Source: a virus | Lineage: Duplodnaviria > Heunggongvirae > Uroviricota > Caudoviricetes | Length of the DNA stretch: 18,320 nucleotides | Strand: one strand, 5' to 3' | IMG/VR virus record: IMGVR_UViG_2728369556_000002 | In this document: one piece after another, positions 1 to 17,302 of the stretch | Layout: every line of letters begins with the position of its first letter | Numbering within the stretch: the first letter of the stretch is position 1 | Notes under the pieces: generated by a model | What the model was told of the DNA's origin: nothing | What the model saw: the letters and a program-made list of their open reading frames with translations, nothing else | Database searches by the model: none | Program-made: the position numbers and the translations under genes

Positions 1-357
1 GACGAAGTTCACCGCATCCAGAAAACGGGCGTAAACCTTACGCCGGACCACCGTTCCGCCGACCAGACTCTGCATATCTTCCGCCATCCCGGTGACCATG
101 CCGTACAGATTAGAGACTTTAAGCGTTGGCCTTGCACTGGCTCCTTTGCCGTTCATCTCAAATCCGCTTCCCTGAATGGGATAAGCCTGATACTGCCGCC
201 CCTGCCAGGTGACTGGTTCACCTTTTTCGTTCTGCTCATTACAGAAGAAATAACGATCTCCGCCGACCTCTGTCAGATCAATTTCCCAGAGCACGACCAG
301 CGCGGATTGCTCCGTTTTAGTGCACTCATTGAGTGTTTCCTGCTGTATATCCTGCAT
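1..357 (-). CDS. L: minor tail protein L, N-terminal part only (gene runs past the window start)
   Basis: Minus-strand ATG at 357-355 overlaps the stop of the upstream M gene (TGATG). Translation MQDIQQETLNECTKTEQSALVVLWEIDLTEVGG... closely matches the N-terminus of lambda gpL as I recall it. Absent from the ORF track because it has no stop inside the window. Confidence 0.85.
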   Translation of the reverse strand, partial: MQDIQQETLNECTKTEQSALVVLWEIDLTEVGGDRYFFCNEQNEKGEPVTWQGRQYQAYPIQGSGFEMNGKGASARPTLKVSNLYGMVTGMAEDMQSLVGGTVVRRKVYARFLDAVNFV

Positions 358-713
358 CAGTGAGTGACCTCTTCAAAGGTACAGTTAAAATCGGTATACA
401 TGGCATTATCCGAAATGCTCCACTCCCTGCAGACAACCCGGACAGTCCTGTTGTGTTTTGGCGGACGCCACAAAAAAGCACGAATCCCGGCATGACGGGA
501 TAAAAAACTGTCCAGCGCGGCACGGGAATATTCATCTGTGACACGAAATACCGGTTTAAACGTTTTCAGATCCGCATTCAGACCACCAGCCCGTCGCTGT
601 TCATATCCGTCACCAAACTTTACCGTAATAACTGATGGCTTTCGTGTCGTCTCCATCCCCTCACGGGGGATCCAGTTAAAAACTTCAGGCTCAGGCACTG
701 TACAATCCTCCAT
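357..713 (-). CDS. M: minor tail protein M
   Basis: ORF track 357..743. The FGDGY...FLW motif region resembles lambda gpM. Start is more likely the ATG at 713 or the GTG at 698 (GGAGG 8 nt upstream) than 743, because the tape measure gene ends at 691. Confidence 0.8.
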   Translation of the reverse strand: MEDCTVPEPEVFNWIPREGMETTRKPSVITVKFGDGYEQRRAGGLNADLKTFKPVFRVTDEYSRAALDSFLSRHAGIRAFLWRPPKHNRTVRVVCREWSISDNAMYTDFNCTFEEVTH

Positions 714-3700
714 CCCGACGCGATGACTGCATAATTGACACAACCCTGCTGTCGATCAGATCCACCAGTCCCCTGGCTGAGCGCGCATCTATCTCGCCAT
801 TGCTCCCTTGATTCTGAATGCTGATGTGATACACGGGAGAATAAACAAATCCACCGCCACCATTCACATCTCCAATGGCCCTGACCCCAAGAGAGCCGTC
901 CGCTGCCCGTGTCAGTGGCATGATTGCTTCAGGCCCGGCCTCGCCCATCAACCCGGCCCCCTTCGCAAAAGCAAAATACGTCGGTGTATCCACAATAGTG
1001 TTACTGTAAGCACTCAGATTTGCCGATGTGTAAACACCACCTTTTGCGTTTGCCACTGCCCCCGAAATCCATCCGCCGACCGTACCAAGCCACCCTCCGG
1101 CACCGGAGAGTGATTTCAGTCCGTTAACAATGGCTGCATTCATCAGAATTTTTGAAACTTCCCGGAGAACTGAACTCCCCCAGTTCCTCCAGTCCACAAC
1201 ATTTCCGGCCAGTGCATCGGAAATATTTGATACCAGCCCGTCCATAGTGGAAACGACAGCATCTGCCGCCTGCGAAGCATAATCGGTGGCACTGTCTGCC
1301 CAGTTGGTCAGCCCCTCCTGGAGTCCTGCATTCCAGTTATTACGTAAAGCATCGGCCTTTGCATAATAATCCTGCTGATCGCTGAGACGCTCTTCCAGAT
1401 ATTTTTTATTCAGTTCTTTCTCCTGTTTCCACAGGGCTTCTTCAATTTCTCCGGCCTGATACTGTCTCAGCAGCTCGTTATTTTTCTGCTCAAACTCATG
1501 CCGGATACTCCACATTTCCTGGAGTCGTTCACGCATCCGTGAGCCTTCACCATATCCCAGTAACTGCGCGTCGTTAGACGCCCGGGTACTGGCATTACTG
1601 TCCGCCAGGCTGCTTTCATACGCAGCAAGCTGCTCACGAATCTTTTTCTGGTCGATGAGTGCTGCATTCTGCAAAAGCGTTTTTTTCTGCGCTTCTGACA
1701 GGGTTGATAATTCGCCCTGACTGACCTGATATTTCATCTTAGCCAGTTCAGTATTCTGCCCTGCCAGTGCTATCTGTTCTTTTTGCTGTTTAATCAGCCG
1801 TTTATAAATATCTTCTGTTTTTTCCGCTTCGGTCTTTTTATGCGCTTTGGGTTTATTTGCCTGGTTATTTCGCCAGGCATCCAGTGAGTTATTGATATAA
1901 TTCTGTCTGGCTGTCTGATACGCCTCTCCCACAAAGCCAAGATCATCCGCAGCATAGCCCAGTCGAGCACGCTCACGCGCTTCCCCCTTAAGGCGGGACA
2001 GAGCCAGTTCGCGCTTGCTGTTATTCAGTGCGGTCTGCTGTTTATCATCCAGGGTTGCCTGTGGTAGCCGTAACGGTACATTCACCAACCCCTGTCGCTG
2101 CTGAAGTAATTCATTACCAAGCCCAAGAAGGCGATTAAACTCGGTATGCTGCCCATTCATGATCAACAGGGACTGATACGCTTTGTTTTGTTCCGCCGCC
2201 TGTTGACGGATCAACGCAACCCGCCGCTCCTCCAGCCCGGCAAGCACATCCTGAATGGATTGCGCTTTGCCCTGCATTTGTGTGAGACGGGACTGTTCAA
2301 CTGCCAGTTGATTTGTTGCTTCTGCAAGCCCTTCTGTGACTGTTTTTACCGACGTCATGTGGTTAATCATAAAACCGTTATCGGTTGTCCAGCCCGGGTT
2401 TGCCAGCACATACTGATAGCCAGCAATTTTTTCCTGTAAGGATTTAATCTTACTTTTCTGCTCGTCAATTAACCTGTTTTGCTCATCAAGTGCCTGCCGC
2501 GTCTTTTCCTCATTATCTGACGCTTCAGGAAGCGACATTGCCGACGTTTTCTGGCGAATTTCGTCGATTGTTGCGGCATACTGGCGTGCAGATTCTCTGG
2601 CCTGCTCCTGATTCTGATACATCGTGTACCAGGCCGTCGCCCCCAGCATGACGAGTCCCGGCACACCACCAACCAGCCCCAGCGCACCACTTAACAGACG
2701 ACTCCCCACTGACGTGACAGTATTCAGCGTTGTCTGCGCCGCTGTTCTGGCCGCAATATTACGGGTAAGTGACGCCTGAGCAGCTGTCAGCTTCGCTTCT
2801 GCTGCGGCCTGCCTTTCGGTACCGCGAGCAGCAACAACCGCCTGTTGCGCACGATAAACCGCCGCACGCGCTCTGGCGGTTGCTATCTGTGTCCCCCGAA
2901 GTTGCGCTTCAGCAAGAGCCACTTCGTTTCTGGCTGCAGTAATTAATCCGGCAGTTGCAGATCCAGCAGACGACGCCATATTGCCAAAATATCGGGCTAC
3001 CCCGACGGCAACCAGTGCGCCAGCTGCAGCAGCCACGGTATCAATATTGTCTGCAACACCATTCAGCACACCGGAGAGTGTCTTTGTCACTCCGCTTGCC
3101 TCGTTCGCACCACCAACCCAGGCCATAAAGGCGTTTTCAACTTTGGTTGCAGAGGATGAAACAGTATCAGGCATTGCTGCATATTCATCACGCAACGCCC
3201 CAAGCTGACTAATCAGTGCAGGAACAACCTTATCGGCGGTCAGTTTTCCGTTATCCGCCATGGCCTTCAGATCCTTACGGGCAACCCCCATTCCCGCAGC
3301 CAGCGCACGAATAACACGATCGCCGTTCTCATTCACCGAGTTAAACTCTTCACCGCGCAGCACTCCCTGCGCCAGTGCCTGACTGAACTGCATGATCACC
3401 GAACTGGCTTCTGCTGTACTGGCACCGGATAATTTCAGGCCCGTGGAGATCGCCTCGGTGACTTTCAGTACCTCCTCAGAACTGTAACCATACTCCCGCA
3501 TGGAAGCTGCAGAACGGGCAAAAAGGCTGGCGTTATCAGAAAACGCCGTCCCCGTTCTCTGGCTGATCGCCATTAATTCACGCTGTGATGCCTGAAAATC
3601 ATCACTGGACTGTGAGGCCTGCTTCAGACGGGCATTTACTGAATTCCACTCATCGGCGAGAGAAATAAGATGACCGGTAGCAAAAGCCCCGGCAAATGCC

Positions 3701-3924
3701 CCCGCCATATTCAGTGCCGAAGATTTAGCTGTATTTATCTGATCCGTCACTTCTGCCAGTGCACGCCGCATTTCACGGGAGGCAGCAGCAGACTGTTGGC
3801 CTCCGTTCTGCATGGTGCGGTAGTAATCCTGCCCCATACGCGAAGCCCGGGAGATCTCTGACTGGAATGACCGGGAGTTTGCCGAGATTTTAATAATCAG
3901 TTCACGTAATGTCGCCACACTCAT
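691..3924 (-). CDS. H: tail tape measure protein (gpH-like)
   Basis: 1077-aa ORF with Ala/Gln-rich coiled-coil composition, located directly after the G/T chaperone pair and before M and L. Confidence 0.93.
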   Translation of the reverse strand: MSVATLRELIIKISANSRSFQSEISRASRMGQDYYRTMQNGGQQSAAASREMRRALAEVTDQINTAKSSALNMAGAFAGAFATGHLISLADEWNSVNARLKQASQSSDDFQASQRELMAISQRTGTAFSDNASLFARSAASMREYGYSSEEVLKVTEAISTGLKLSGASTAEASSVIMQFSQALAQGVLRGEEFNSVNENGDRVIRALAAGMGVARKDLKAMADNGKLTADKVVPALISQLGALRDEYAAMPDTVSSSATKVENAFMAWVGGANEASGVTKTLSGVLNGVADNIDTVAAAAGALVAVGVARYFGNMASSAGSATAGLITAARNEVALAEAQLRGTQIATARARAAVYRAQQAVVAARGTERQAAAEAKLTAAQASLTRNIAARTAAQTTLNTVTSVGSRLLSGALGLVGGVPGLVMLGATAWYTMYQNQEQARESARQYAATIDEIRQKTSAMSLPEASDNEEKTRQALDEQNRLIDEQKSKIKSLQEKIAGYQYVLANPGWTTDNGFMINHMTSVKTVTEGLAEATNQLAVEQSRLTQMQGKAQSIQDVLAGLEERRVALIRQQAAEQNKAYQSLLIMNGQHTEFNRLLGLGNELLQQRQGLVNVPLRLPQATLDDKQQTALNNSKRELALSRLKGEARERARLGYAADDLGFVGEAYQTARQNYINNSLDAWRNNQANKPKAHKKTEAEKTEDIYKRLIKQQKEQIALAGQNTELAKMKYQVSQGELSTLSEAQKKTLLQNAALIDQKKIREQLAAYESSLADSNASTRASNDAQLLGYGEGSRMRERLQEMWSIRHEFEQKNNELLRQYQAGEIEEALWKQEKELNKKYLEERLSDQQDYYAKADALRNNWNAGLQEGLTNWADSATDYASQAADAVVSTMDGLVSNISDALAGNVVDWRNWGSSVLREVSKILMNAAIVNGLKSLSGAGGWLGTVGGWISGAVANAKGGVYTSANLSAYSNTIVDTPTYFAFAKGAGLMGEAGPEAIMPLTRAADGSLGVRAIGDVNGGGGFVYSPVYHISIQNQGSNGEIDARSARGLVDLIDSRVVSIMQSSRRDGGLYSA

Positions 3925-3932
3925 TCTCCGGA

Positions 3933-3955
3933 CGAAAAAAAACCGCCGAAGCGGT
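3933..3955 (-). terminator. intrinsic terminator-like hairpin between the GT and tape measure genes
   Basis: Minus strand reads AACCGCTTCGGCGGTT followed by TTTTTTTT (plus 3933-3955), immediately upstream of the H ribosome-binding site. Confidence 0.4.
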
Positions 3956-3964
3956 TATGTTGAC

Positions 3965-4255
3965 TCACTGAGACACTATTAAAAGCGCGTTTTCCAGTCC
4001 GGCAAATGGATCTGAAGCGCCTTCTGTCTGCTCCTTCTCCCACTGAAGAAGCGCATCATTCAGTGACACTTTGACCCCCTGCGCACCGTAAATAGCTGAA
4101 ACAATCTGGGCAGCCCGGAAATCAGCCCGTTCGTCCCCCAGCGGGCTGAACCTGTCAAATTCTGCCCACATCATGATTTCTGATGCGGACATTTCCCGGC
4201 GTAACTCTGACAATGTGCGCCCCATCCTGAGCGCCAGCATCATCAGAAAACGCAT
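3965..4255 (-). CDS. T: tail assembly chaperone T segment, probably made only as a G-T fusion by -1 frameshift
   Basis: The 96-aa ORF lies in the -1 frame relative to G. The -1 frame is open from the A8 slippery run at the end of G (4271-4278) into this ORF. Confidence 0.7.
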   Translation of the reverse strand: MRFLMMLALRMGRTLSELRREMSASEIMMWAEFDRFSPLGDERADFRAAQIVSAIYGAQGVKVSLNDALLQWEKEQTEGASDPFAGLENALLIVSQ

Positions 4256-4266
4256 CCCCGGAAGCG

Positions 4267-4638
4267 CTACTTTTTTTTAACCTCGCCGGCATCACTGATC
4301 AGTTCCAGAGACTGCCGAAGAAGCCGCGCATGCACCGGGCCATACACGGCAATCACCTGTTCACGATCATCCTCTGAAAATACGGGTTGCAGTCCGGTAT
4401 CACACAGAACATCAATGAACAGTTCAACATCTGCCTCCAGATTTCGGCGGGCGCGCTCCGCAACGGATAACGGTGTCTCATCATCTTTTGCTTTAACGAT
4501 CTCCTGCCAGCGCAACCAGGCTTCTGCAGAAGGTTCCCGTAACACAACCGTTGCTCCCTCCCATTCAGGCACATCAACGGTTTTATGGCGAAACCCCGAC
4601 ATCGTTGCCAGTGCCAGATTACGGATATTTTTAGTCAT
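4267..4638 (-). CDS. G: tail assembly chaperone G
   Basis: ORF track 4267..4653. Preferred start is the ATG at 4638 (MTKNIRNL...) with GAGGA 8 nt upstream. The gene ends ...GEVKKK-stop inside an AAAAAAAAG slippery run. Position between V and H. Confidence 0.7.
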   Translation of the reverse strand: MTKNIRNLALATMSGFRHKTVDVPEWEGATVVLREPSAEAWLRWQEIVKAKDDETPLSVAERARRNLEADVELFIDVLCDTGLQPVFSEDDREQVIAVYGPVHARLLRQSLELISDAGEVKKK

Positions 4639-4652
4639 CACATCCATCCTCA

Positions 4653-5357
4653 TTAACTGACGGTTACAGTGCAGGAAGTGGAGGTCACTTTGTTAACCGG
4701 GCTCGCTGAATCAGAAATCTCGCAGGTATACGCACCGGCATCACCGGATGCTGCTGATGCCTTACTGAACGTTGCCGCCGTCTGTCCGGAAACAGGAGAA
4801 CCACCTTTTTTCCAGGCATAAGAATAAGGCGGCACACCACCCACAGCCTCAACCGCCATTTCAAGTTTCGCTCCGGAAGCAACCCGCAGCGTGCTTTTTA
4901 AATCGACCTTCACTTTCAGCTGCTCTGTCGTCAGCACAGGCTTACCTTTCAGGCGCAGAGAAAACGTTGCAGCCACAACACCATTGGTTCCTGCAGACCA
5001 GGTATGCTGACGCACCTCTGCCATAAAGGTAAATCCGTTGCCTGACGGAAAAATAACTTTAAAGCCATACGTGGTGTCATTGTCATAGGCACTGCGCAAC
5101 GCGTTCTGGGCAGCATTCAGATAAAAGTTGCCTGACATGGAAATCTCTGAAGCAGCCCCAAGACCGTTAATATTTTCCTGCTCAACAGAATACAGCGTGG
5201 TGACATCAATATCCTGCTTTTGTCCTGCGGTAAACTGCACCTCTTTGATTGTACAGCTCAGGCCAAGATAGCTGGCAGAATCCAGGGTTTCTGCTGTTAC
5301 CGGTGCAGACGAAATCATAATTTTCGTCAGTTGCGAACGCTCAAAATTAGAGGACAT
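4653..5357 (-). CDS. V: major tail protein (gpV-like) with C-terminal Ig-like domain
   Basis: 234-aa ORF with AGGAGA ribosome-binding site. The C-terminal ~90 aa (VPPYSYAWKKGG...AYTCEISD...) look like a Big_2-type Ig fold, as in lambda gpV. Confidence 0.88.
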   Translation of the reverse strand: MSSNFERSQLTKIMISSAPVTAETLDSASYLGLSCTIKEVQFTAGQKQDIDVTTLYSVEQENINGLGAASEISMSGNFYLNAAQNALRSAYDNDTTYGFKVIFPSGNGFTFMAEVRQHTWSAGTNGVVAATFSLRLKGKPVLTTEQLKVKVDLKSTLRVASGAKLEMAVEAVGGVPPYSYAWKKGGSPVSGQTAATFSKASAASGDAGAYTCEISDSASPVNKVTSTSCTVTVS

Positions 5358-5363
5358 ACTCGT

Positions 5364-5385
5364 CTCCTGAAAATAAAAAAACCCG
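5364..5385 (-). terminator. intrinsic terminator-like hairpin upstream of the major tail gene
   Basis: Minus strand reads CCCGCCGCTGGCGGG followed by TTTTTTT, then the V ribosome-binding site. Confidence 0.4.
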
Positions 5386-5417
5386 CCAGCGGCGGGTGGG
5401 TAAAATCATTAATGACC

Positions 5418-5762
5418 TCAGGCTATTACCTGGAATTCAAGCGTGGCTCTGCTCAGACGGGAGTCAGGATCATAACCCTGCGTTTTAGAAATAACGGAGG
5501 GTGCCAGTTTTCTTACCGCATCAAGCGCCTGCTCACGAATATTATCTGCGTCATCAGGTACTGTCGCCCAGACATCGATCTGCACGGTAATTCTGGATTC
5601 AGCCTGCCCATCAAGCACATCAGATACCGTGTCAGACACCACAGAAAACACCAGCCACGGCGGAGATACTGCAGGCTTTCCCTCCGTCAGCGGGACCACA
5701 TAAGGATAAACCTGTCCTCCGGCCAGCTGAGACAACAGGGAATACAGTGTGCCCTCCCTCAT
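5418..5762 (-). CDS. tail terminator protein (gpU position)
   Basis: 114-aa ORF whose ATG overlaps the upstream stop (ATGA), immediately before the major tail gene. Assignment is by position and size, with weak family recall. Confidence 0.6.
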   Translation of the reverse strand: MREGTLYSLLSQLAGGQVYPYVVPLTEGKPAVSPPWLVFSVVSDTVSDVLDGQAESRITVQIDVWATVPDDADNIREQALDAVRKLAPSVISKTQGYDPDSRLSRATLEFQVIA

Positions 5763-6205
5763 TTACTTAAGACCTCATCAATAGCCTGATTCATTCGCTG
5801 TATGGCAACCTGCGCCGCCAGCTCCTCTGTCGTATCGAAAGCCGGGCGAATGAATGGATGCGCGGGCATGTTTATCGTTCCCAGCTCCACAAAGCGCCAG
5901 TAAAATGCATTTCGGGGATCGCTGGCTTTCATGCTGTTATCACTGTTTCCGGTTCGCAGGTTCCGTCCGCGAATGTGGACACCCGAGATAATTTCCCCCC
6001 GACGCTTTGAACGCTGAGTGAGAACAACCACATTTTTCTTCAGTTTCCCGGTTCGCTCCGGCGCACGTTCAACAACTGCATCCCGCATAACTTCAGCACC
6101 GGCACGGGTGGCATCGCGCAGAACCTTATTGTTTTCTGCCCTGCTGAGCGTCTCCAAATCCCGTGCAATATCCGCCAGGCCGGAAAAATCAAGACTGAAA
6201 TCCAT
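5759..6205 (-). CDS. HK97 gp10-family tail completion protein (gpZ position)
   Basis: Contains the motif NAFYWRFVELGT...PFIRPA typical of the HK97 gp10 family. Likely start is the ATG at 6205 overlapping the upstream stop. Confidence 0.75.
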   Translation of the reverse strand: MDFSLDFSGLADIARDLETLSRAENNKVLRDATRAGAEVMRDAVVERAPERTGKLKKNVVVLTQRSKRRGEIISGVHIRGRNLRTGNSDNSMKASDPRNAFYWRFVELGTINMPAHPFIRPAFDTTEELAAQVAIQRMNQAIDEVLSK

Positions 6206-6543
6206 CACACATTCCCCTTCAGGCTGCAGAGTATTTCAAGCCGGGTAGCGCGTGCATCCGGTATTGGTGGACCTTCTATACCCAGAATGGCCCCTTTAAA
6301 TGCACCGGTCAGCACTTTCAGACGTGAAGTCGCTGTCACATCGCGCCGGAATCTCATCCAGACTCTGACCGTAGCCTGAGCGGTTTCTGCTCCGCCTGAG
6401 ATTATCTCCCTCCCGCTGATACCCTTAACTTCTGCCCATACGGTAGCTCCCTCCGTCACCGTCTCCACCGGATGCCCTGACGGAGAGCGGGCGGTGGTGA
6501 CATTCAGAATAATTACGCGATCACGTAATCTGCCCGCCTGCAT
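6205..6543 (-). CDS. head closure / head-tail adaptor protein
   Basis: 112-aa ORF with a strong AGGAGGAG ribosome-binding site. Size, position and the ...WAEV...R..R pattern fit the head-tail joining family. Confidence 0.75.
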   Translation of the reverse strand: MQAGRLRDRVIILNVTTARSPSGHPVETVTEGATVWAEVKGISGREIISGGAETAQATVRVWMRFRRDVTATSRLKVLTGAFKGAILGIEGPPIPDARATRLEILCSLKGNV

Positions 6544-6551
6544 GTCTCCTC

Positions 6552-6869
6552 CTACAAAGGAATAAAACGATAAGGCTCCAGCAGAGAAGAAAAACCAAAC
6601 GGGACTGGTGCCTTACTGACATCTGAGGAATTTTCCCGGTTTTCGCACCAGTGCCCGACCAGCAACATGAGCGCCAGCAAAACATCATCAGCTATAAGCA
6701 CCCCTTCAGGATCACCTTCCGGCACCGTCTCCTCATAAAGCTTACGGTTGATAAAATTTTCTGCCTTGCGGCAGGCAGCCCGGAAATACAGCATCAGTAA
6801 CTCATCATCAGTTGCATCATCTGTATCAATACGGCACTGCGCCCTGAGTTTTTCCACTATTGCTGCCAT
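6552..6869 (-). CDS. head-tail connector protein (gp6-like)
   Basis: ORF track 6552..7049. The real start is probably the ATG at 6869 (MAAIVEKL...) with AGGAG upstream, because the major capsid gene ends at 6946. Confidence 0.75.
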   Translation of the reverse strand: MAAIVEKLRAQCRIDTDDATDDELLMLYFRAACRKAENFINRKLYEETVPEGDPEGVLIADDVLLALMLLVGHWCENRENSSDVSKAPVPFGFSSLLEPYRFIPL

Positions 6870-6900
6870 CAGAAACTCCTGCCCGCAACACTGTGCGGGC

Positions 6901-6923
6901 ATAAAAAAACCGCGTCGGCGCGG
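6901..6923 (-). terminator. intrinsic terminator-like hairpin downstream of the major capsid gene
   Basis: Minus strand reads ACCGCGCCGACGCGGT followed by TTTTTTT, directly after the capsid stop codon. Confidence 0.45.
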
Positions 6924-6945
6924 TCTGTAACTGAACAACGAGTGG

Positions 6946-8163
6946 TTATTTGCCAGTGAGCGCCTTGATGGCTGCCACATCTTCCAGCACACAGTCAAAA
7001 CGATGGAAAGCCAGAAATGCCACCTGATCAAACTCAGCATAACGCTCAACCAGACGTTTCAGTTCCATATAAGTAACGCGGCGAATGATAAAGCGGTTGA
7101 AATCCCCCAGGAAAATGAATTTTTTTCCAGTACCAATCCCGTCAATAGCCTGATCAATAACATAAGGGATCCCCAGCACAGTAGCCGGCGTACCGCCTGC
7201 AATATCCGGCAGCCATAACGGGCGTTTCTGTCCATCCTCCATCTCTTCAATAGTCTGCAATGTGGCATCATTGAATGCCCAGCGGTATTTCGGCCCACCA
7301 CGATATGCCGGATCAATGGCATGTTTCAGGGCATTCATTTCTTTCCAGGTGAAAGCGGCAGAGGCTGCAGTCTGGATGGTTCCCGTCACCGACGCTGCCA
7401 GCCCTTTTGGCTGTAACGGTGATCCCGTTCCGGTCCCCTGAACCAGATATTTTGCCTCTCCACGACCAATACGCTGGGCAATACGGTTTGCCAGATAAGA
7501 TTCAATATCCACCCCACTGTCCTGGAGCAGCTCATTGGACACACGAATTATTTTTGATGACAGCTTTTTAGCCCCCAGAATAGCGGTCCCGAACGTCACA
7601 TCCTGTTCCGTTGCGGCTGTATTTTCCGCCAGCAGTTCGCCCTCTTCAGTCGTGCCATCAGACGTTGACCAGGTGATATCCTGCCCGGTTGATGTGGTCA
7701 GAAGTTGCGCCACACTGGCAATCCCGCCATAAGCCTTCATGGTGTCAATGATTTTGTTACGCATCTGCGTGGGCACCGTATATCCGCCCTGAGAATCCGT
7801 TGTTACACTCTGAGCCCGCAGTTCACGCATCAGATTACGCTCTTCAGCATTCAGTTCTGCAAATCCGGCACGCAGAAAACGGTTAAATGCCGCAGCACGC
7901 TTCTCTTCCACCGCCTTTTTCCCGTTCTCCGCCTCATTATTCTGGCGCTCTTCCGGCCCGGACTCATCCACATATGCCTGATCCTGACGGCGCAACTCTT
8001 CTTCACGGGCGATTTGCTCATCCAGCGCATCCAGCTCAGCTTTCGCCCTGTTCCACTCTGCCCGTTGCTCATCAGTCCATGCGTTATCACCAATTTTTTC
8101 ATGCAGTGCACGCATATCCTTTGCAATGGTGTTTCGTTTTTGCTTCATCTCATGAAGTTTCAT
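6946..8163 (-). CDS. major capsid protein, HK97 family, with N-terminal coiled-coil delta domain
   Basis: 405-aa ORF with a charged coiled-coil N-terminal ~120 aa followed by an HK97-like capsid body. Lies between the protease and connector genes. Confidence 0.92.
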   Translation of the reverse strand: MKLHEMKQKRNTIAKDMRALHEKIGDNAWTDEQRAEWNRAKAELDALDEQIAREEELRRQDQAYVDESGPEERQNNEAENGKKAVEEKRAAAFNRFLRAGFAELNAEERNLMRELRAQSVTTDSQGGYTVPTQMRNKIIDTMKAYGGIASVAQLLTTSTGQDITWSTSDGTTEEGELLAENTAATEQDVTFGTAILGAKKLSSKIIRVSNELLQDSGVDIESYLANRIAQRIGRGEAKYLVQGTGTGSPLQPKGLAASVTGTIQTAASAAFTWKEMNALKHAIDPAYRGGPKYRWAFNDATLQTIEEMEDGQKRPLWLPDIAGGTPATVLGIPYVIDQAIDGIGTGKKFIFLGDFNRFIIRRVTYMELKRLVERYAEFDQVAFLAFHRFDCVLEDVAAIKALTGK

Positions 8164-8177
8164 CGTCAGTAGTATCC

Positions 8178-8724
8178 TTATGCATTAAGAAGGGTCAAAA
8201 GGCGCTCACGCGCCATTCGTTCATTAACAGCTTTCTTCAGCGCACCACTCGCCCGCGCTTCCTGCCAGGCTTTCATTGAGCGGACACCGGAGTCTGCGTC
8301 CTGATAGGCCGGATATGTCACCGGGCTGACGTCATACAGACGAGAAATGCGCGTGATTTCCCGGATAACAATCCCCTCGTCGTCTTCATACCAGCTCTCT
8401 CCGTCACGGGCGACACGAAACGCGAACGAGGACTGGTTAATGTCACCACGCAACATTGGAGACAGCACCAGGTCACAAATAGTCGGAGTATCCGGTGCAA
8501 CAATGTCATAACGTAAACCGCGTTCATCCACCGACAATGACAATGTGCCGGCAGAACTTCGTCCGAGAATGAAATTAGGATCATGATTAAACAAGCCACG
8601 TACATCATCATTCAGTACATCATCAAAAGCCCCCGGCTTGATGATTTCACGAAATCCCCACAGAGGTTCTGAACGACTGTTAAATACCGAGCCATACCCC
8701 AGAATGTGGGTCGGGCATTATCAT
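8178..8724 (-). CDS. prohead protease (HK97 / S78 family) with an apparent frame break at the 5' end
   Basis: The protease frame is open from 8717 to 8178 (...ILGYGSVFNSRSEPLWGFREIIKPGAFDD...NHD...) but has no ATG, GTG or TTG before the TTG at 8594. The only ATGs with a ribosome-binding site (8724 and 8718) are in the +1 frame and stop after 14 codons. Confidence 0.75.
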
Positions 8725-8768
8725 ATTGTTCCGCCCGCACCTCCCCGCTGTAACAGCGCGTTTCACGG

Positions 8769-9995
8769 TCATTCATCGTTCTTTTCCTCTTTGCCTTTCG
8801 TATCTTTAAAGTTATTCAACGGATTTGCTGCATTTACGCTGACCAGCATTTCATCCAGACCGTCAACCGGGTTCATATCCTCAAATGCCCTGGCTTCATT
8901 CCGACTCATCCAGCCATCTGTAATGGCAAAGTGATAGAACTGCGCACGCTCCTGTGGGGTCCCACGGAGCAACCCCGTGAGGTTAAAACGAACGTAATAC
9001 CCGGCAGCCCGTTCTGTACGGGTAAACAGGCGACGGTTAAGCTCCTGCTCCCAGTTCGCAACCCAGGGCATCATCGTGTAGCGAACAAACTGAATCGCCT
9101 GCTGCGTAATATTCGAAAATGTGGCTTTTTCCAGGTCATTAATCATGTGCGCCGGGACATTAAAAATCCCTGCAATCATCGACCTGTTCAGCTTGGTCAT
9201 ATCAATGATCTGAGCATCCACCGGAGAAACTGTCAGAGCGCGGTAATCCAGTTGCGCAGGCAACAGCATGGTTTTATTTTCCTGGCTGCGAAGCGCTGTC
9301 ACCGCCCGCTGCCACATATTTTTAAGCCTGCCCCAGCTCTGTTCGTTCAGTTCATTTTTCACAGAAATAATACCGGCAGGACGGGCATTACCGTTAAAAA
9401 AGGCGCTGGTATACTGCTGGCCACTCATTCCCATACCAATGGTTTCAGCATGCTGCATGATCGGGCTCAGTCCCATTTTCTGATTGTTTCCCAGCGCCCT
9501 GATATGGATCATGTCGTCCGGACTTACCGCAAATGCACCCTCTTCGTTATACACCCCGTAAGTATGACGCCCACCGGTGTTAAGTAACGTGGTTTCCCAT
9601 GGCATACAGCATTCAAGGCTGGTAACCTCTCCACGACGATTACGTTTTACCCACGTATAACCATTGCCCCACCCCAGCACATGACGCTGCTTCAGTTCCC
9701 GCCACTTATAGCTGGTCTGCCAGGCATTAGGTTCATCATGAACGAGCCAGAACAACGGATGATCGCGTGCAGGCTGAACATGCTCATTCGTTTTTCGCAT
9801 CACATGCAGGGGCATCTGAGCCACACTGGATGAAATAACATAAATACAGGCATAGACAGCAGCCAGCTTCATGGATGTTTCCGGACTGACATACACATCC
9901 CGGGCAAAAATATTATCCGTCTCAGCGGCCTCTCCGGTTACCGGAACCGAGGGATTTTCCAGAGACTCACTGCGAAACAGAGCATCAAGAAGCAT
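8769..9995 (-). CDS. portal protein, HK97 family
   Basis: 408-aa ORF with AGGAGA ribosome-binding site, directly downstream of large terminase. Confidence 0.92.
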   Translation of the reverse strand: MLLDALFRSESLENPSVPVTGEAAETDNIFARDVYVSPETSMKLAAVYACIYVISSSVAQMPLHVMRKTNEHVQPARDHPLFWLVHDEPNAWQTSYKWRELKQRHVLGWGNGYTWVKRNRRGEVTSLECCMPWETTLLNTGGRHTYGVYNEEGAFAVSPDDMIHIRALGNNQKMGLSPIMQHAETIGMGMSGQQYTSAFFNGNARPAGIISVKNELNEQSWGRLKNMWQRAVTALRSQENKTMLLPAQLDYRALTVSPVDAQIIDMTKLNRSMIAGIFNVPAHMINDLEKATFSNITQQAIQFVRYTMMPWVANWEQELNRRLFTRTERAAGYYVRFNLTGLLRGTPQERAQFYHFAITDGWMSRNEARAFEDMNPVDGLDEMLVSVNAANPLNNFKDTKGKEEKNDE

Positions 9996-10125
9996 GTTTT
10001 CTCCTCATGGACACTACCAGTGCATAAAGCAGCAACAAACAGCCCGACAGCATCAGAGACGCTGGCAGACCTGCATACAGATAAACGCCAGCAGTGAGCA
10101 AACCGAAACCGATCAGCCCGGTCAT
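9985..10125 (-). CDS. hypothetical small hydrophobic protein (46 aa) between large terminase and portal
   Basis: Found by manual translation: MTGLIGFGLLTAGVYLYAGLPASLMLSGCLLLLYALVVSMRRKHAS. Its stop overlaps the portal start. No clear ribosome-binding site. Below the ORF-track length cutoff. Confidence 0.3.
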   Translation of the reverse strand: MTGLIGFGLLTAGVYLYAGLPASLMLSGCLLLLYALVVSMRRKHAS

Positions 10126-10142
10126 ATCAGTAATAAGCTGTT

Positions 10143-11900
10143 TCACAGAATTAACAGGTCCTCATCAGGATCAAGCGTGGACAGAAAGTCATTCACGCCC
10201 CCGCCATTTACCAGAAAGCGGCTCATGGCCGTAAAAAGCGCAACAGGGCCGTCGATTTTGGCTTCAGGCGTGGATTTATTCGGGAAGATGTTGTCGTTTT
10301 TGTCCGGTTTTACCGTAACGTTAGACATCATCCAGTTCATGACCGGATGATTGCTGTGATGGAAACGCCCGGCATAAACCAGTGATTCCGTTTCCTTCAT
10401 GGCCTCTGACAGATTGCGGACCGTCTGCGGAACCTCCACCAGCGGTATCCCTTCTTCAGCCAGTGCCAGGCTGAACTGCATTGCGCTCCACGGGTCAAAT
10501 CCCAGTTCCCTGAGGTTTTCACCGCCAATCCATTCCAGTAAGTCACTTTTTATCTGAGCATGATCGATAACATCACCATCCGTCAGGATGAGCTTATCCA
10601 TCTCCGCCCACTTCCGGTAAAGTTCTGCCTGCTGCCGCGAGCATCGCTCCAGCCGTCCTTCCGGAAGCCAGAATTTAAAATCAGCATGAACATGTCCGTT
10701 ATCGGTTCGCCAGAGTTTTGCCGCCGCACAGATATCAATCTTATGAGCAAGGTCGACGCCGACCCACATGGGATATGTTTTCAGCTCATGTTGTGGAGCA
10801 ATGTATTCGCACTTCTCCCACTTAATCATATCCATCCAGGCAGATTCGGCAGTGACCCACACATTCATGTGTTTGGTAAAAAAATTCACCCGCGCAGAGA
10901 CCTGCTCCTTCGCTTTTTTCGCCAGACGACGCAGATCATCCCAGCGTTTACAGATGCCCAGGCCAGGATTCGCTTTCTGCCAGACCGTTTCATCAAACGG
11001 ATCATCTCCCTCATCGAGCGTGTAAATGATCGCAAAGTAGGAGTCGTCTTTTACCGCGCCCTCCACGTCGCTGTTATAGCCTCGCAATACCTTAATGGCG
11101 TAATCGCGCTGCTCGTAGCAAATCCCTTCCTTGTTAAAGCCAGCCGTGGTGATGCCAAATAACAGAGACTGCAGACGGGCACCGGTTGCCGTTTCCAGAA
11201 CGTCCCACACGTCACGGGTTTTATGAGCATGCAGCTCATCAATAATGGCGCAGTGGATGTTCAGACCGTCCAGGTTGTTTGCATCCGAGGAAAGCGGTTC
11301 AAATTTTGATGCGCTCTGCTCCTGGTAAATCGCCAGCTTGTTGAAATCAAACAACCGCCCGAGTGTCGACCGGGCTTTTCTGACCATATTTTTGGCGTCT
11401 TCAAACACAATTCTGGCCTGGTCACGCGTGGTTGCGGCTGAATACACCTCAGCCCCGCCTTCACCATCTGCCCCCGTCATATACAGACCGATACCCGATG
11501 ACAGGGTTGATTTTGCGTTTTTACGGGCAACTTCGTTGTATGCTGTCCGGAACCGGCGCACCATCACCGGGCGTCCACTGCCATCGCTGCGCATGACAAC
11601 TTCCCCGGTTTCTTCATTCACCAGCGGAATGACAAAACCAAAAATATTAATGAGGATAAACACATGCCAGTCCATCAACTCAATGGGCTGACCTGCCAGC
11701 GCCCCTTTCACATGGGGTACAAATTTGTAGAAATTAAGGATGTGCTGTGCACGGGGTTCACTGAAATAAATCCCCCGCTCTTCGCCGTACTTCAGATCAT
11801 CAAGAAAACGCTGGCAGGCCAGACGGACAAATTCGCCAGCAACAATTTCTCCTGCAACAACACGTTCGGCGTAGCGGATCCCGTCAGCCACTTTTGCCAT
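10143..11900 (-). CDS. terminase large subunit
   Basis: 585-aa ORF whose ATG overlaps the stop of the small terminase C-terminal frame (TGATGG). Sequence character matches the terminase ATPase/nuclease family. Confidence 0.95.
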   Translation of the reverse strand: MAKVADGIRYAERVVAGEIVAGEFVRLACQRFLDDLKYGEERGIYFSEPRAQHILNFYKFVPHVKGALAGQPIELMDWHVFILINIFGFVIPLVNEETGEVVMRSDGSGRPVMVRRFRTAYNEVARKNAKSTLSSGIGLYMTGADGEGGAEVYSAATTRDQARIVFEDAKNMVRKARSTLGRLFDFNKLAIYQEQSASKFEPLSSDANNLDGLNIHCAIIDELHAHKTRDVWDVLETATGARLQSLLFGITTAGFNKEGICYEQRDYAIKVLRGYNSDVEGAVKDDSYFAIIYTLDEGDDPFDETVWQKANPGLGICKRWDDLRRLAKKAKEQVSARVNFFTKHMNVWVTAESAWMDMIKWEKCEYIAPQHELKTYPMWVGVDLAHKIDICAAAKLWRTDNGHVHADFKFWLPEGRLERCSRQQAELYRKWAEMDKLILTDGDVIDHAQIKSDLLEWIGGENLRELGFDPWSAMQFSLALAEEGIPLVEVPQTVRNLSEAMKETESLVYAGRFHHSNHPVMNWMMSNVTVKPDKNDNIFPNKSTPEAKIDGPVALFTAMSRFLVNGGGVNDFLSTLDPDEDLLIL

Positions 11901-11958
11901 CAGTCTCTCGCTTTTAAAAGCTCTGCCAGCGGATCAACATCATCCGGTCCGGCGGTAT

Positions 11959-12381
11959 TTACTTTCGCCCGGCTTGCCGGTGACATACCAAACTCTGCAA
12001 GCATCGCCCGAATCCGCTTCCAGGCATCAGCTTCATCGCAGCAGCCGGGTGTGCCTTGATCAGCACATCGCCATTCTGCGTTTCCGTGCGGTAGGTATAA
12101 CCCTCAACATCGAGTATTTCGCAGTGATGCCGGTATTCGGTGTAGGCTTCCACCAGTAACTCGAGCGCACGTGCATCGAGCTGAGAAATGATCCCTTCCG
12201 CATTCAGCTCTTCCGCCATTCGCCTGAACCAGTACTTCCCCTGCGCCCCTAAATGTTGCGGAATTTTAGGGAGACCTTTTTCATCCTTTTTAGCGGTTTT
12301 TTTGGAGTCTTTAACTGGCCGCTTTGAGGGGTTACCTCGTATCAAATGCAGGCGTGGCGGGGTTTTCGGGGGTCCAGACAT
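11959..12381 (-). CDS. terminase small subunit (P27 family), apparently frameshifted near the 3' end
   Basis: N-terminus MSGPPKTPPRLHLIRGNPSKRP... is typical of the P27 family. The expected C-terminus (DAWKRIRAMLAEFGMSPASRAKV...KARD-stop, overlapping the large terminase ATG) is encoded in a different frame from about 12010 to 11900. The span 12381..11900 is 482 nt, not a multiple of 3. Confidence 0.8.
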   Translation of the reverse strand: MSGPPKTPPRLHLIRGNPSKRPVKDSKKTAKKDEKGLPKIPQHLGAQGKYWFRRMAEELNAEGIISQLDARALELLVEAYTEYRHHCEILDVEGYTYRTETQNGDVLIKAHPAAAMKLMPGSGFGRCLQSLVCHRQAGRK

Positions 12382-12527
12382 AATCGATTTTACCTATCAA
12401 TCATTTAATCACATTCCAAAAAAAAGTTTTCGAACCTGCGGCGATGCGAGGAAAGGTCAGGCGGCGGTACTGAGCAGCAGGGTTGCAGAGATTTGACCTG
12501 CCCCTCCCCTACAGATGGGAACTGTTA

Positions 12528-12878
12528 TCAATTGAGGCGTTCGCGCGCTGTTTTTGCTTTATGACAGGGCCAGCACAGACTCTGCAGGTTACTGTCTGCA
12601 TCCGTGCCACCATGAGCTTTCGGAATGATGTGGTCCACAGTTCTGGCTTCAACGGCTCTCCCATTGCGCAGGCAGTTCTGACACAGATGATTATCACGCT
12701 TCAGTATGCGCGCACGTATGGCATCCCATTTCGAGCCATAGCCACGCTGGTGGCGGCTCAGTCCGCGTTGATGCTGTACCCATCCTTCGCCACGATGTTT
12801 ATCGCAGTAACCAGAACTGTCTGTGGTTGTACCTGCACATCCACGCTTACGGCAGGCGCGTGGGATTCGTGGGGGCAT
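12528..12878 (-). CDS. HNH endonuclease (terminase-associated)
   Basis: ORF track 12528..12977. Preferred start is the ATG at 12878 (MPPRIPRACRK...) with GGAG upstream. Contains Cys pairs and the motif VDHIIPKAHGG...N...LCWPCH. Confidence 0.85.
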   Translation of the reverse strand: MPPRIPRACRKRGCAGTTTDSSGYCDKHRGEGWVQHQRGLSRHQRGYGSKWDAIRARILKRDNHLCQNCLRNGRAVEARTVDHIIPKAHGGTDADSNLQSLCWPCHKAKTARERLN

Positions 12879-12998
12879 ATGTACTCCAATGAAGAAGCCA
12901 CCGACATAGCCTCCTCCATTCATAGTGAAACTATTTTCATCTACCCAGTAATGAATTCTTTGTAGAGTTGTGATCAATACAACTCACTAATGGAGAGG

Positions 12999-13020
12999 CT
13001 TGTCCAACACGTTGGACAAG
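12999..13020. repeat. inverted repeat, 10-bp arms with 2-bp spacer
   Basis: CTTGTCCAAC ac GTTGGACAAG; the arms are exact reverse complements. Confidence 0.8.
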
Positions 13021-13100
13021 TTTCCTGTTTGATTTACTGGACACTATAGAAGGACAGAATGCCTTCATCACTCGAATAACATCAATTAAGGAGGTTCAAC

Positions 13101-13223
13101 ATGTTTCATTCCACAAATCATCAGGCTGTAATTATGGCTGCATCAGCTTGTGCCACAGACCTTTTCCGCTTCACTTTGAGCCTGATTCATTTCTACCTGA
13201 CCGGCTCGCCTCTATCTTTTTAA
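13101..13223 (+). CDS. hypothetical 40-aa protein
   Basis: Near-consensus AAGGAGG ribosome-binding site 6 nt upstream of the ATG. Encodes MFHSTNHQAVIMAASACATDLFRFTLSLIHFYLTGSPLSF. A palindrome lies about 80 nt upstream. Below the ORF-track cutoff. Confidence 0.3.
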   Translation: MFHSTNHQAVIMAASACATDLFRFTLSLIHFYLTGSPLSF

Positions 13224-13403
13224 TCCCCGCTTTATCCAAATTGCATTGCCAGAATGCCGACAACAGACTGACATTCAAATCCTGACTACCTCCAATAGGC
13301 TGAGCATCCACCTATATAGTTTTAATTTTCATCAATCCATTTAACTATCGTTTAATTGTTGTCACATAGGATTCTGCCGTTTTTAACAATGCAGGATAAT
13401 AAG

Positions 13404-13697
13404 ATGAAAAAAATGTTGTTTTCTGCCGCTCTGGCAATGCTTATTACAGGATGTGCTCAACAGACGTTTACTGTTGGAAACAAACCGACAGCAGTAACAC
13501 CAAAGGAAACCATCACCCATCATTTCTTCGTTTCGGGAATTGGACAGGAGAAAACTGTTGATGCAGCCAAAATTTGTGGCGGCGCAGAAAATGTTGTTAA
13601 AACAGAAACCCAGCAAACATTCGTAAATGGATTTCTCGGTTTTATTACTTTAGGCATTTATACTCCACTGGAAGCGCGTGTGTATTGCTCACAATAA
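13404..13697 (+). CDS. bor: Bor outer-membrane lipoprotein (serum-resistance, Iss-like)
   Basis: MKKMLFSAALAMLITGCAQQTFTV... has a lipobox and is nearly collinear with lambda Bor as I recall it. On the opposite strand to the late genes, as in lambda. Confidence 0.92.
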   Translation: MKKMLFSAALAMLITGCAQQTFTVGNKPTAVTPKETITHHFFVSGIGQEKTVDAAKICGGAENVVKTETQQTFVNGFLGFITLGIYTPLEARVYCSQ

Positions 13698-13728
13698 TTG
13701 CATGAGTTGCCCATCGATATGGGCAGCT

Positions 13729-14190
13729 CTATCTGCACTGCTCATTAATATACTTCTGGGTTCCTTCCAGTTGTTTTTGCATTGTGATCAGCCTCTCTCT
13801 GAGGGTGAAATAATCCCGTTCAGCGGTGTCTGCCAGTCGGGGGCTGGTTGCATTATCCACGCCGGAGGCGGTGGTGGCTTCACGCACTGACTGACAGACT
13901 GCTTTGATGTGCAACCGACGACGACCAGCGGCAACATCAGCGCGCAGAGTTTCATTTTCAGCTTTCGCATTGGCTAATTCTCTCGAGTACTTTGCATCGA
14001 GTGCAGCAACATCACGCTGACGCTGCTGCATGTCAGCGATAGTGGCGATCGCCTGCTTCAGCTCACTGACTTTTTTATCACGCTGTTCTTTGTAGGCGAT
14101 GGCGTTATCACGGTAATGATTGACCGCCCACGACAGGCAGACGATGATGCAGATAACCAAAGCATAAATAATCGCGGCGACTCTGCTCAC
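13729..14190 (-). CDS. Rz: i-spanin Rz
   Basis: Strong match to lambda Rz (...[25 protein letters not shown]...KYINEQCR). Probable GTG start at 14190 overlapping the endolysin stop (GTGA); the ORF track lists an upstream TTG at 14205. Confidence 0.92.
13788..13970 (-). CDS. Rz1: o-spanin Rz1, embedded in the +1 frame of Rz
   Basis: 60-aa ORF with lipobox (VVGC) and a proline run ([12 protein letters not shown]), as in lambda Rz1, lying entirely within Rz. Confidence 0.88.
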
Positions 14191-14720
14191 TGCTCTATCC
14201 CCCAACAGGCTAATGCGCTTTCCTGGTCACGACGAATAACCTGTCCATAGCAGTTATTTGAACGTATGCGGCAATCGCGCCCACCATCTTTTATCCACCA
14301 GCGAATCGCCTCGCATGCGCCCTTACGATCACCGGCATTCAGCCGCTTATAAAACGTCGACGGGAAACACTTACCGGGGCCAATGTTATAGGGACAGAAT
14401 GACGCTATACCCGCTTTTTGTGGTTCGGTCAGTAGTACTTTAATATTGCGCTCCACCCATGCCAGCGCCTTATCACGCTCAATGGCGTTGACCTGGTCGC
14501 ATTTTTCCTTCGACAGTTTCATACCGGGAAAAACGGGTTTTCCATCCACCATCGTGGCACCCCGACAGATGGTCCAGATGCCGGACCCATCGCGGTATGC
14601 CGTTGTGTGGTTACCTTCTTTTTCATCCAGAAACTGGTCGAGAATATCAGGCGCGGGCGCACCGACGGCAATCAGTGCCAGAACGGCAGCCGACAGGCCG
14701 TATCTGATTTTTGCGTTCAT
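14187..14720 (-). CDS. SAR-type endolysin (phage lysozyme)
   Basis: 177-aa ORF with an N-terminal weakly hydrophobic Ala/Gly-rich segment ([18 protein letters not shown]) followed by a lysozyme-like body, resembling signal-arrest-release endolysins such as phage 21 R. Confidence 0.88.
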
Positions 14721-14783
14721 GGATATTTATCAGGATTTATCGGTTTCTGCCCACGGACAGGTTTATCTGTTCCGGTCAGTGAC

Positions 14784-15134
14784 TTAAGGTTGTGATTCCG
14801 GAGGAGTCTTCAGAGAACCAGTAATTCTTCCCGGTAGCTTTCCTTTGTAGGTTATCCATACATTCTGCGCCTCTAAAATTACGGGGCGCTTTTCCGGCGA
14901 CTGCTCATCCCCTTCACATAACCCGGCAGCAACATCCAGGAAGACCTGTCTGATACTCATTCTGGCTGCTGCCTCATAAAACTCCAGCGCGGCACCTTCA
15001 ACACGGTCCAGCGAGATGTCCAGGTCAAAAATTTCACCGTCAAAGCGTTTTTTGTCCCGTAACGCTAAAGTTACCGTAACTTTATTCTCAAAATTGCGGA
15101 TCCCTTTCACAATCAGTTCATAGTTTTGAGTCAT
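14784..15134 (-). CDS. hypothetical protein between holin and endolysin (DUF1327 / YdfR-like)
   Basis: 116-aa ORF with GGAGAG ribosome-binding site, in the same position as ydfR in the E. coli Qin lysis cassette. Family assignment is from memory. Confidence 0.55.
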   Translation of the reverse strand: MTQNYELIVKGIRNFENKVTVTLALRDKKRFDGEIFDLDISLDRVEGAALEFYEAAARMSIRQVFLDVAAGLCEGDEQSPEKRPVILEAQNVWITYKGKLPGRITGSLKTPPESQP

Positions 15135-15138
15135 TGAA

Positions 15139-15354
15139 TTACTCTCCCCGTGCCGCCTTACGACGGTCCTCTCTGATTTTGAAATACAGGTTAGTCAGAT
15201 ATGTCAGCAGCCCAAACAGCAGACTCCCCAGCACGCCTATTGCCGCCCACTGAGACGGGGAAACCCTGTCCAGCAACTGCAGGAACCAGTAGCCCGTTCC
15301 CACCGCTGACGTGGTGTATGACACACCTGTTGTGATTTTTTCCATCTGGTCCAT
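15139..15354 (-). CDS. class II holin / pinholin (phage 21 S-like), dual-start
   Basis: ORF track 15139..15459. Real start is the ATG at 15354 ([10 protein letters not shown]..., 71 aa) with GGGAGA upstream. Two in-frame Met codons at positions 1 and 4. C-terminus ...[30 protein letters not shown]. Confidence 0.88.
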
Positions 15355-15386
15355 ACCCCGTCTCCCGTTATCCGGAAGCTGACAAC

Positions 15387-15418
15387 AATAAAAAAGCCAC
15401 CAGTTAACTACTGATGGC
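15387..15418 (-). terminator. intrinsic terminator about 35 nt upstream of the holin gene
   Basis: Minus strand reads GCCATCAGTAGTTAACTGGTGGC (7-bp stem with one G-U pair) followed by TTTTTTATTG. Confidence 0.5.
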
Positions 15419-15661
15419 TCTGATAACTCATGCAAGCGTCTCAGACGATCCACTGACACTACCGGTGAGTTTAACGATACCTTCCATTTGACTGGCTCAC
15501 TTTTTATGATGATGCCGGTGTATTTATCTCCAGCACCAGACTTTCTATCTCAACGCCATACGTTGCATTTTTGGTAATATCCGTCAGCGTCAGTGCATTT
15601 AGTCCCACTGCCAGACCGTCTTTTATGGTCTGGAATGCCGGGCCAGTACGATGACGTAGTA

Positions 15662-15850
15662 TCACTCCGGCTCAGTTGCACCACTGACCACCACATCACC
15701 TTCTGCTGCAATCGCCTGCATCAGGGTATAAGGGGTTATGGCCACCGGACTACCAAACGGCTGCCAGCCCTCTTTCAGTTTATGTGTCAGCTTTTCCGCA
15801 AGATCTGACGGCGGCGCCGCCCTGACAACATCATAGTGTTTAAATGCCAT
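15662..15850 (-). CDS. hypothetical small protein upstream of the holin (possibly DUF1737-like)
   Basis: ORF track 15662..15865. Likely start is the ATG at 15850 (MAFKHYDVVR..., 62 aa) with GGAAAG upstream. Family name is a low-confidence recollection. Confidence 0.5.
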   Translation of the reverse strand: MAFKHYDVVRAAPPSDLAEKLTHKLKEGWQPFGSPVAITPYTLMQAIAAEGDVVVSGATEPE

Positions 15851-16110
15851 GGTTCTTTCCACCATCTGAAAAATAATTCTTTAAAATACCAGACATGTAA
15901 CACAGAAAAAACACAAAACCATACCTTAAATAGAAACCTGATCATCAAGCAGATATGCATGGATAAACTACAAGACGAGATATAAACCACCCTGCATTTA
16001 AATAAACAATAAACAACATCAGAAAAATAATTCTGCTCTATGGTTTATATTCAAAAATATCATTTATACTTTTCAGAACATCACCAGCAAGGCATAAACA
16101 AGGAAGCTAA

Positions 16111-16446
16111 ATGAAGTGGATTGTAATTGATACAGTTATCCAGCCATCATGCGGAATATCTTTTTCAGTCATATGGAGTAAAGTAAAATTAATAATCTGG
16201 TATCAATCGGATGCTTTCTTACCTCCTGAAAGTATATTTACACTGACTCACACAGGTATCATGCTCAATAACAAAGTGCTACCTGTAACCATTTACAACG
16301 TAGTACCATTCAATAAAACATTCTGGAATTTAATCAAAAACAGCCAGGAATGCCCTACAAATACAGATAACGTATTGAATGAATGCTTTAATAACCGTTG
16401 CATTCTGCAAATATGTCCTTATGGACTAAAACAACAAAGTCCATAA
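16111..16446 (+). CDS. orphan low-GC protein of unknown function (111 aa)
   Basis: An uninterrupted 111-codon ORF in markedly AT-rich DNA, with AAGGAAG 6 nt upstream of the ATG. On the opposite strand to the late operon. No family recognised. Confidence 0.45.
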
Positions 16447-16448
16447 GG
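16417..16448. repeat. inverted repeat, 11-bp arms with 10-nt loop, at the 3' end of the orphan ORF
   Basis: CCTTATGGACT aaaacaacaa AGTCCATAAGG; the stop codon of ORF 16111..16446 lies inside the right arm. Confidence 0.8.
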
Positions 16449-16466
16449 AGTTTACTCACATCTGAC

Positions 16467-16640
16467 AAAATCAATATAAACAGCCCCTCCGGAGAGGGGC
16501 TGGAGAGTGGCGCTATGTGCCATTGCATGGTGCCGGGTGCCTCCCGGTGAATTCAGTACCAGCACCTGAATCCGCGATTATCCCATATACCTACTCGCTG
16601 ATTACCCCTCCGCACAGGGGGATTCACCATGCGAAATTTT
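16467..16640 (-). ncRNA. candidate structured small RNA, copy A
   Basis: Minus strand shows promoter-like boxes (TTGTCT, 18 nt, TGTTAAAAA), a 5' arm GCATGGTG, internal hairpins, a 3' arm CACCATGC, then terminator AGCCCCTC-TCCG-GAGGGGCT with a U-rich tail. Paralogous to copy B. Confidence 0.3.
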
Positions 16641-16935
16641 TTAACAAACTTCCCGCCGGCCAGACAATAATCGCCAGCCTGAATTATGAGCAACGTGGCA
16701 TTTTACGGGAAAACTGTTTTCTGCAGTAAAAAGGCCCGCCGGAGCGAGCCTGGAAGGATAGCGGTCATGTGATGCCGGTTTCCCGGTAACTCAGCATCGG
16801 TATCTGAGTCAACGTTTTCTCTACTGGGTCATTTCCGATACGTTCCGCCTTCCGGCAGACTTTCATCACGTCAGAAAATATAGCACCCTGAGTAACAGGA
16901 CAGTACTCAGAATTCAGGAAACTGTGACACATCCT

Positions 16936-17110: not shown

Positions 17111-17302
17111 TAACAAATTCTCCGGCAGCCAGACAATCATCAAGCTGTGGAATTGTGAGGTATTTAAAAATTTCAACGGGTAACTGATACCCTGCTAATC
17201 GCCTGATGCTTTCTTTTTCAGCAACGGGAAAGCAACAACCACACACCCGCCACCAAAACACCATCAGACAGCACCGACATTATCCGGCTGCTGAAGTCCA
17301 CC

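Follow-up and report, generated by a model that had tools for sequence, protein, structure and literature searches.

The window, that is, the whole stretch of DNA analysed here, comprises 18,320 nucleotides of a Caudoviricetes virus record (IMGVR_UViG_2728369556_000002). Its head genes lie on the minus strand, and the features at and around the protease locus are the following:

6946–8163, minus strand: major capsid gene, intact, immediately downstream of the protease and encoding the protease substrate (open reading frame list and annotation)
8178–8776, minus strand: prohead (capsid maturation) protease pseudogene of the HK97 family, Pfam Peptidase_S78 (PGAP label and PF04586 match)
8178–8717, minus strand: the protease frame, here called frame B, holding protease residues 22–199 including His65 and Ser117, with no usable 5' start codon
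8178–8594, minus strand: a 138-aa ORF opening with TTG, which begins at Leu62, three residues ahead of the catalytic His
8612–8776, minus strand: the ORF translatable from the true start, 54 codons, ending at TGA 8614–8612 (frame translation)
8713–8715, minus strand: the lesion, a run of three Cs in codon 22 where intact relatives have four (alignments and allele counts)
8769–8776, minus strand: the true start, ATG 8776–8774, overlapping the portal stop TGA 8771–8769 as ATGAATGA (sequence and annotation of relatives)
8769–9995, minus strand: portal gene, intact, immediately upstream of the protease (open reading frame list and annotation)

The protease locus measures 599 bp in the window and 600 bp in intact relatives. 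Translation of the minus strand agrees with the original prediction that the protease frame is open from 8717 to 8178, over 180 codons including the stop: frame B opens with CPTHILGYGSVFNSRSEPLWGFREIIKPGAF... and runs through 179 sense codons to the TAA at 8180–8178. It is also correct that no ATG, GTG or TTG lies ahead of the TTG at 8594, since none of the three occurs in the 41 codons from 8717 to 8595. A start-free stretch of 41 codons has a chance of about 0.14 and is unremarkable by itself; it gains meaning because of homology, as the match to the S78 profile begins at residue 5 of frame B, which corresponds to profile position 16 of 165. The ORF that opens with the TTG matches only positions 55–159 of the profile (95.7 bits) and is missing the first 54 of the 165, so a start there would truncate the conserved N-terminal region, as had been anticipated.

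Two ATGs, at 8724 and 8718, had been put forward as starts furnished with a ribosome-binding site but lying in another frame. They do lie in a third frame, where they give a product of 14 codons (MIMPDPHSGVWLGI*), but the nearest GGAGG ends 15 nt ahead of ATG 8724, too far for a ribosome-binding site, and neither ATG is used by any relative. We therefore rejected both as the original start. That start is ATG 8776, because the 199-aa proteins of intact relatives begin there. The same position is annotated in prophage 813R8, in Escherichia phage Evi and in Klebsiella phage vB_VIPKPNMC05, as well as by PGAP, and an AGAGGA at 8790–8785, 9 nt upstream, is a plausible Shine-Dalgarno sequence. The 199-aa proteases of 813R8, Evi and vB_VIPKPNMC05 all open with MNDRETRCY.GEVRAEQ, from an ATG that overlaps the portal stop. 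Judging from its sequence, the ORF read from ATG 8776 in the window carries the authentic protease N-terminus: it consists of 21 native residues (MNDRETRCYSGEVRAEQYDNA) followed by 33 out-of-frame residues, and a Pfam profile search found no match for its 54 codons (8776–8612).

Alignment of the locus with the protease genes of intact relatives, which had been suggested as a check, reveals one missing C. The window and strain M217 have CCC at 8715–8713, while 813R8, MSB1_8G and 'strain 167' (CM132952) have CCCC, with flanks that are otherwise identical, and this is the single difference within the gene between the window and the intact copies. The expectation that a single-base indel near 8700–8715 would restore a normal gene is thus borne out. 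The idea that such an indel would join the ATGs at 8724 and 8718 to the protease frame is not, as the lesion, a deletion, calls for a −1 shift: with a base gone from codon 22, the sequence beyond it lies in frame −1 with respect to the start codon. With the C restored, an uninterrupted 199-aa protein results, with the same length and start as the proteases of Evi (99% amino acid identity) and vB_VIPKPNMC05 (88%). The protein of the intact copies in MSB1_8G, CM132952 and vB_EcoS-813R8, WP_000999828.1, is encoded in one frame by DNA identical to that of the window but for one extra C, and for all the head and tail proteins nearby the RefSeq accessions are identical in both types of prophage. The window, one C short at 8715–8713, lacks one continuous frame running from the start codon through the whole S78 domain.

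Apart from this break, the gene has the features of its family. The repaired protein matches PF04586 (Peptidase_S78) with 139.4 bits and frame B with 136.3 bits, against a cut-off of 21. We placed the catalytic residues by means of an alignment with HK97 gp4, whose His65 and Ser114 we take to be the catalytic His and Ser: FNH65D of the window aligns with FNH65K of gp4, and QSS117FAF with GMS114VGF. A search by sequence among solved structures returned as its sole match a chance one to tubulin (E = 0.55). The gene order portal (8769–9995), protease (8178–8776) and capsid (6946–8163), all on the minus strand, is that of a head module, and the protease lies between the portal and major capsid genes as in HK97. 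Profile, catalytic residues and gene position together identify the gene, at the level of its sequence, as a bona fide member of the HK97/S78 prohead protease family. The likeness to gp4 nevertheless has its limits. Identity is about 33% over the alignment; gp4 has 225 aa and the present protease 199 aa, with a shorter C-terminal region; the protease start overlaps the portal stop in the window, where HK97 instead has a gap with an annotated terminator; and, unlike gp4, the window copy is a pseudogene through a 1-bp deletion.

To determine how far the deletion is shared, 73- and 74-nt probes, one for each allele, were run against 5,426 complete E. coli genomes. The stretch was present in 608 of them, with the exact CCC allele in 95 and the exact CCCC allele in 330; in the remaining genomes of the 608, each sampled match covered all 74 bases of the intact version and contained SNPs. 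Going by the names of strains in the CCC group of 95, the lineage may be ST167. In IMG/VR, the CCCC version was found in 41 contigs and the CCC version in none. The CCC allele also occurs in the GenBank prophages 733R4, 640R1 and 716R1, which come from a study in which isolates were sequenced on the HiSeq 2500 and assembled with SPAdes, and in which prophages were predicted with PHASTER (10.1101/2022.06.29.498070). PGAP labels the copies of M217 and AR_0162 "HK97 family phage prohead protease, frameshifted". The variant is thus limited neither to one assembly nor to an error-prone technology.

These counts bear on the possibility that the source genome of the window really reads CCCC and that one C was dropped in base-calling or assembly. 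The window does have two further single-base deletions (12031 and 12478) and no substitutions with respect to AR_0162, and no complete genome matches the 12031 deletion or the window at full length. Phage records give no exact match to the window either, the best matches measuring 18,322 bases against its 18,320. Deletions without substitutions are typical of indel-prone assemblies, and that of the window may be error-prone. However, the identical CCC recurs in 95 complete genomes that many laboratories obtained independently and in three prophages of the HiSeq/SPAdes study, a 4-base run is not normally a hotspot of Illumina error, and M217 and AR_0162 have the CCC run but not the two private deletions of the window. 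It is not credible that some 100 independent assemblies would share the same mistake at a run of four bases, and we consider an artefact at the protease very improbable. The presence of CCC in 95 complete genomes and in three prophages of an Illumina study argues instead for a real, inherited mutation, and the allele is almost certainly a genuine, vertically inherited, lineage-restricted loss-of-function mutation.

The small-terminase break, which the original prediction had pooled with that of the protease as one pattern of indel errors or genuine decay, behaves differently. Over all 18,320 bases, the window differs from AR_0162 only by two missing bases, at 12030/12031 and at 12477/12478, and both of these private deletions turn CAGCC into CAGC. 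The former truncates the P27-family small terminase (minus strand, 11900–12381); the latter falls in the gap that separates the HNH endonuclease gene from that of the small terminase, where a CCAGG (Dcm) motif loses a C. The allele of the window at 12031 was absent from all complete genomes in which that stretch is present (0 of 362), and IMG/VR has no contig with it. Two private indels without private substitutions plausibly look more like base-calling or assembly error than like evolution, although a private mutation at the terminase may be the alternative. Since the protease allele is common to 95 genomes and the terminase allele is private, pooling of the two breaks is unjustified: decay holds for the protease, and error is a possibility for the terminase alone. 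In ON470607, a run of Ns occupies the position of window 12402–12423.

Could a functional protease be made in spite of the deletion, either by −1 slippage (for example of tRNA-Gly on U-GGG-GU, 8701–8696) or from a non-canonical start (ATT 8705 or CTG 8702)? A GGGG at 8700–8697 does lie within the short interval where a −1 shift keeps the conserved YGSVFN motif, and frame B does contain ATT 8705 and CTG 8702; were recoding to occur, the trans-frame peptide would span ...NARPTFWGYGSVF... Yet a programmed −1 frameshift would call for a slippery heptamer, a stimulatory structure and a conserved two-frame layout, and none of the three was found. No X XXY YYZ heptamer occurs in any frame of 8776–8612, the 100 nt downstream (8700–8600) fold at −25.7 kcal/mol with z = −0.61 against shuffled sequences, and the relatives have a single 600-bp ORF, so that the two-frame layout is not conserved. 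We rejected a programmed frameshift on the empty heptamer search and the unexceptional fold. Initiation at ATT 8705 or CTG 8702 was likewise rejected. Neither has a ribosome-binding site, the nearest GGAGG ending about 34 nt upstream of ATT 8705, an unworkable distance, and either start would lose the conserved N-terminal 21–24 residues. The earlier suggestion that intact relatives might initiate at a non-canonical codon such as the CUG at 8702 fails as well, as they use ATG 8776 and a single ORF. Recoding or alternative initiation is, in our judgement, extremely improbable.

The locus resembles the −1 frameshift of tail assembly chaperone genes of the lambda G/GT type in that two overlapping frames are found in a phage morphogenesis gene, but at the chaperone genes the slippery sequence is conserved and the two-frame layout recurs across phages, neither of which holds for the protease site. 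The window contains a pair of tail assembly chaperone genes of the G/T-like type itself (3965–4255 and 4267–4653, minus strand), where the start of the T part varies in the annotation of relatives (279 or 291 bp). Variation of this kind agrees with the programmed −1 frameshift already known from G/T-like chaperone genes.

A truncated but active protease of 138 aa, initiated at TTG 8594 and keeping His, Ser and the C-terminal capsid-targeting region, would be a further way around the lesion. The ORF exists, and its S78 match retains His65 and Ser117. The first third of the domain is gone, however (profile positions 1–54, including the conserved YGSVFN...PGAF), the TTG lies inside the coding region with no evident Shine-Dalgarno sequence, such a start is annotated in no relative, and for PGAP the locus is a pseudogene. 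This ORF is unlikely to yield a folded protease, and an active one has an extremely small probability. The simple loss of the gene by the one-base deletion is the best explanation.

The protease is not the only late function of this prophage to be interrupted, and one further feature is needed here:

18222–18320, strand not assigned: terminal part of ISEc12, which splits Q, the gene of the late-gene antiterminator (match to AR_0162 and not to M217)

ISEc12 is an IS21-family element. The junction lies at 18221/18222, agreement of the window with the intact Q of M217 stops at 18221, and positions 18222–18320 match the AR_0162 sequence that precedes the ISEc12 istA. In AR_0162, PGAP annotates Q as two partial pieces flanking ISEc12; in the window, the Q remnant that still adjoins the late genes (17699–18221, minus strand) amounts to no more than the 3' 174 codons. 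The interruption of Q gives this prophage a second lesion, independent of the protease deletion. M217 carries the CCC allele together with an intact Q, while AR_0162 and the window carry both lesions. This nesting (first CCC, then ISEc12 in Q) fits what would be expected of stepwise decay by vertical descent.

The protease mutation itself appears young. The prophage of NZ_CM132952 ('strain 167') has an intact protease (WP_000999828.1) and differs from positions 1–18221 of the window by the protease base and the two private deletions of the window, with 0 substitutions, so the protease mutation must be very recent. The otherwise complete head-tail module likewise indicates, by comparison of sequences, a very recent lesion.

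Other genes of the AR_0162 prophage are broken too. Partial tail-fibre genes adjoin remnants of IS629/IS3 transposases and a gene for a group II intron reverse transcriptase/maturase (ltrA), and there are a partial DUF1737 gene and other pseudogenes, while iss/bor and iraM are intact. In combining a point frameshift with an IS in Q, truncated tail-fibre genes, other pseudogenes and intact cargo, the prophage resembles defective lambdoid E. coli prophages undergoing ordinary decay or domestication. Compared with these nothing here is distinctive; apart from the break, the head-tail module is whole and does not differ from that of the intact copies.

Some further observations concern the same region. 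The DUF1737 gene upstream of the holin (about 15665–15850, minus strand) is annotated by PGAP as partial, with its C-terminus missing, in every close relative examined; it is partial also in relatives with an intact protease, and is thus an older lesion. The cargo genes lie on the plus strand, opposite to the late operon, at 13404–13697 and 16111–16446, and encode, respectively, a serum-survival lipoprotein (iss/bor) or the anti-adapter IraM in either case; the two have stayed intact in a prophage whose morphogenesis genes decay. A prophage tRNA with a CAT anticodon (17480–17555, minus strand) is tRNA-Met according to ARAGORN and GenBank phage records, and tRNA-Ile, that is, lysidine-modified and ileX-type, according to PGAP.

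In the assembly of HK97, the protease removes the N-terminal scaffolding domain of the capsid protein, a step needed for prohead maturation and DNA packaging. On this model, consequences can be proposed for the prophage of the window, which is a lambdoid one of E. coli and has a head module of the HK97 type. The gene starts at ATG 8776, with its translation coupled to that of the portal gene, and encodes in intact relatives a 199-aa S78 serine protease. With one C lost from CCCC at codon 22, leaving the CCC at 8715–8713, ribosomes that initiate at 8776 add 33 wrong residues to the 21 native ones and stop at 8612, and the remaining 178 codons, with the catalytic His and Ser, lie in the −1 frame without a start codon. 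By analogy with HK97, no active protease would then be made, save perhaps a residue through rare spontaneous −1 slippage; capsid shells could assemble, but their scaffolding (delta) domain would be left uncleaved, and the heads would neither mature nor package DNA. As such proheads would not mature or package, we infer that the prophage would yield no infectious particles on its own, unless another prophage complements the defect. In the version present in the window, the IS in Q should also block late-gene expression.

A more elaborate scenario is that a successful clinical lineage tolerates the three-C allele, or even that selection favours it there, with the prophage disarmed and its cargo (iss/bor and iraM) kept, and with rare −1 slippage on the GGGG at 8700–8697, or reversion from three Cs to four, giving occasional particles. 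We hold this to be very improbable.

As to annotation, the frameshifted protease is already known, since RefSeq labels the identical locus "frameshifted". In ON470607.1, ON470612.1 and ON470621.1, the broken protease is split into two 'head maturation protease' CDSs of 165 bp and 417 bp. The locus would be better annotated as a single frameshifted pseudogene from 8776, and a 138-aa gene starting at the TTG would be wrong. With the head protease broken, calls of 'intact prophage' of the PHASTER type, such as that for vB_EcoS-733R4, probably claim too much. The significance of the case goes little beyond annotation hygiene, in that it separates a real lineage mutation from probable assembly errors: the two 'frameshifts' of the window differ in origin, one being a mutation present throughout a lineage and the other a private change and possible error. 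For the E. coli strains that carry it, the protease lesion is a case of ordinary prophage decay.
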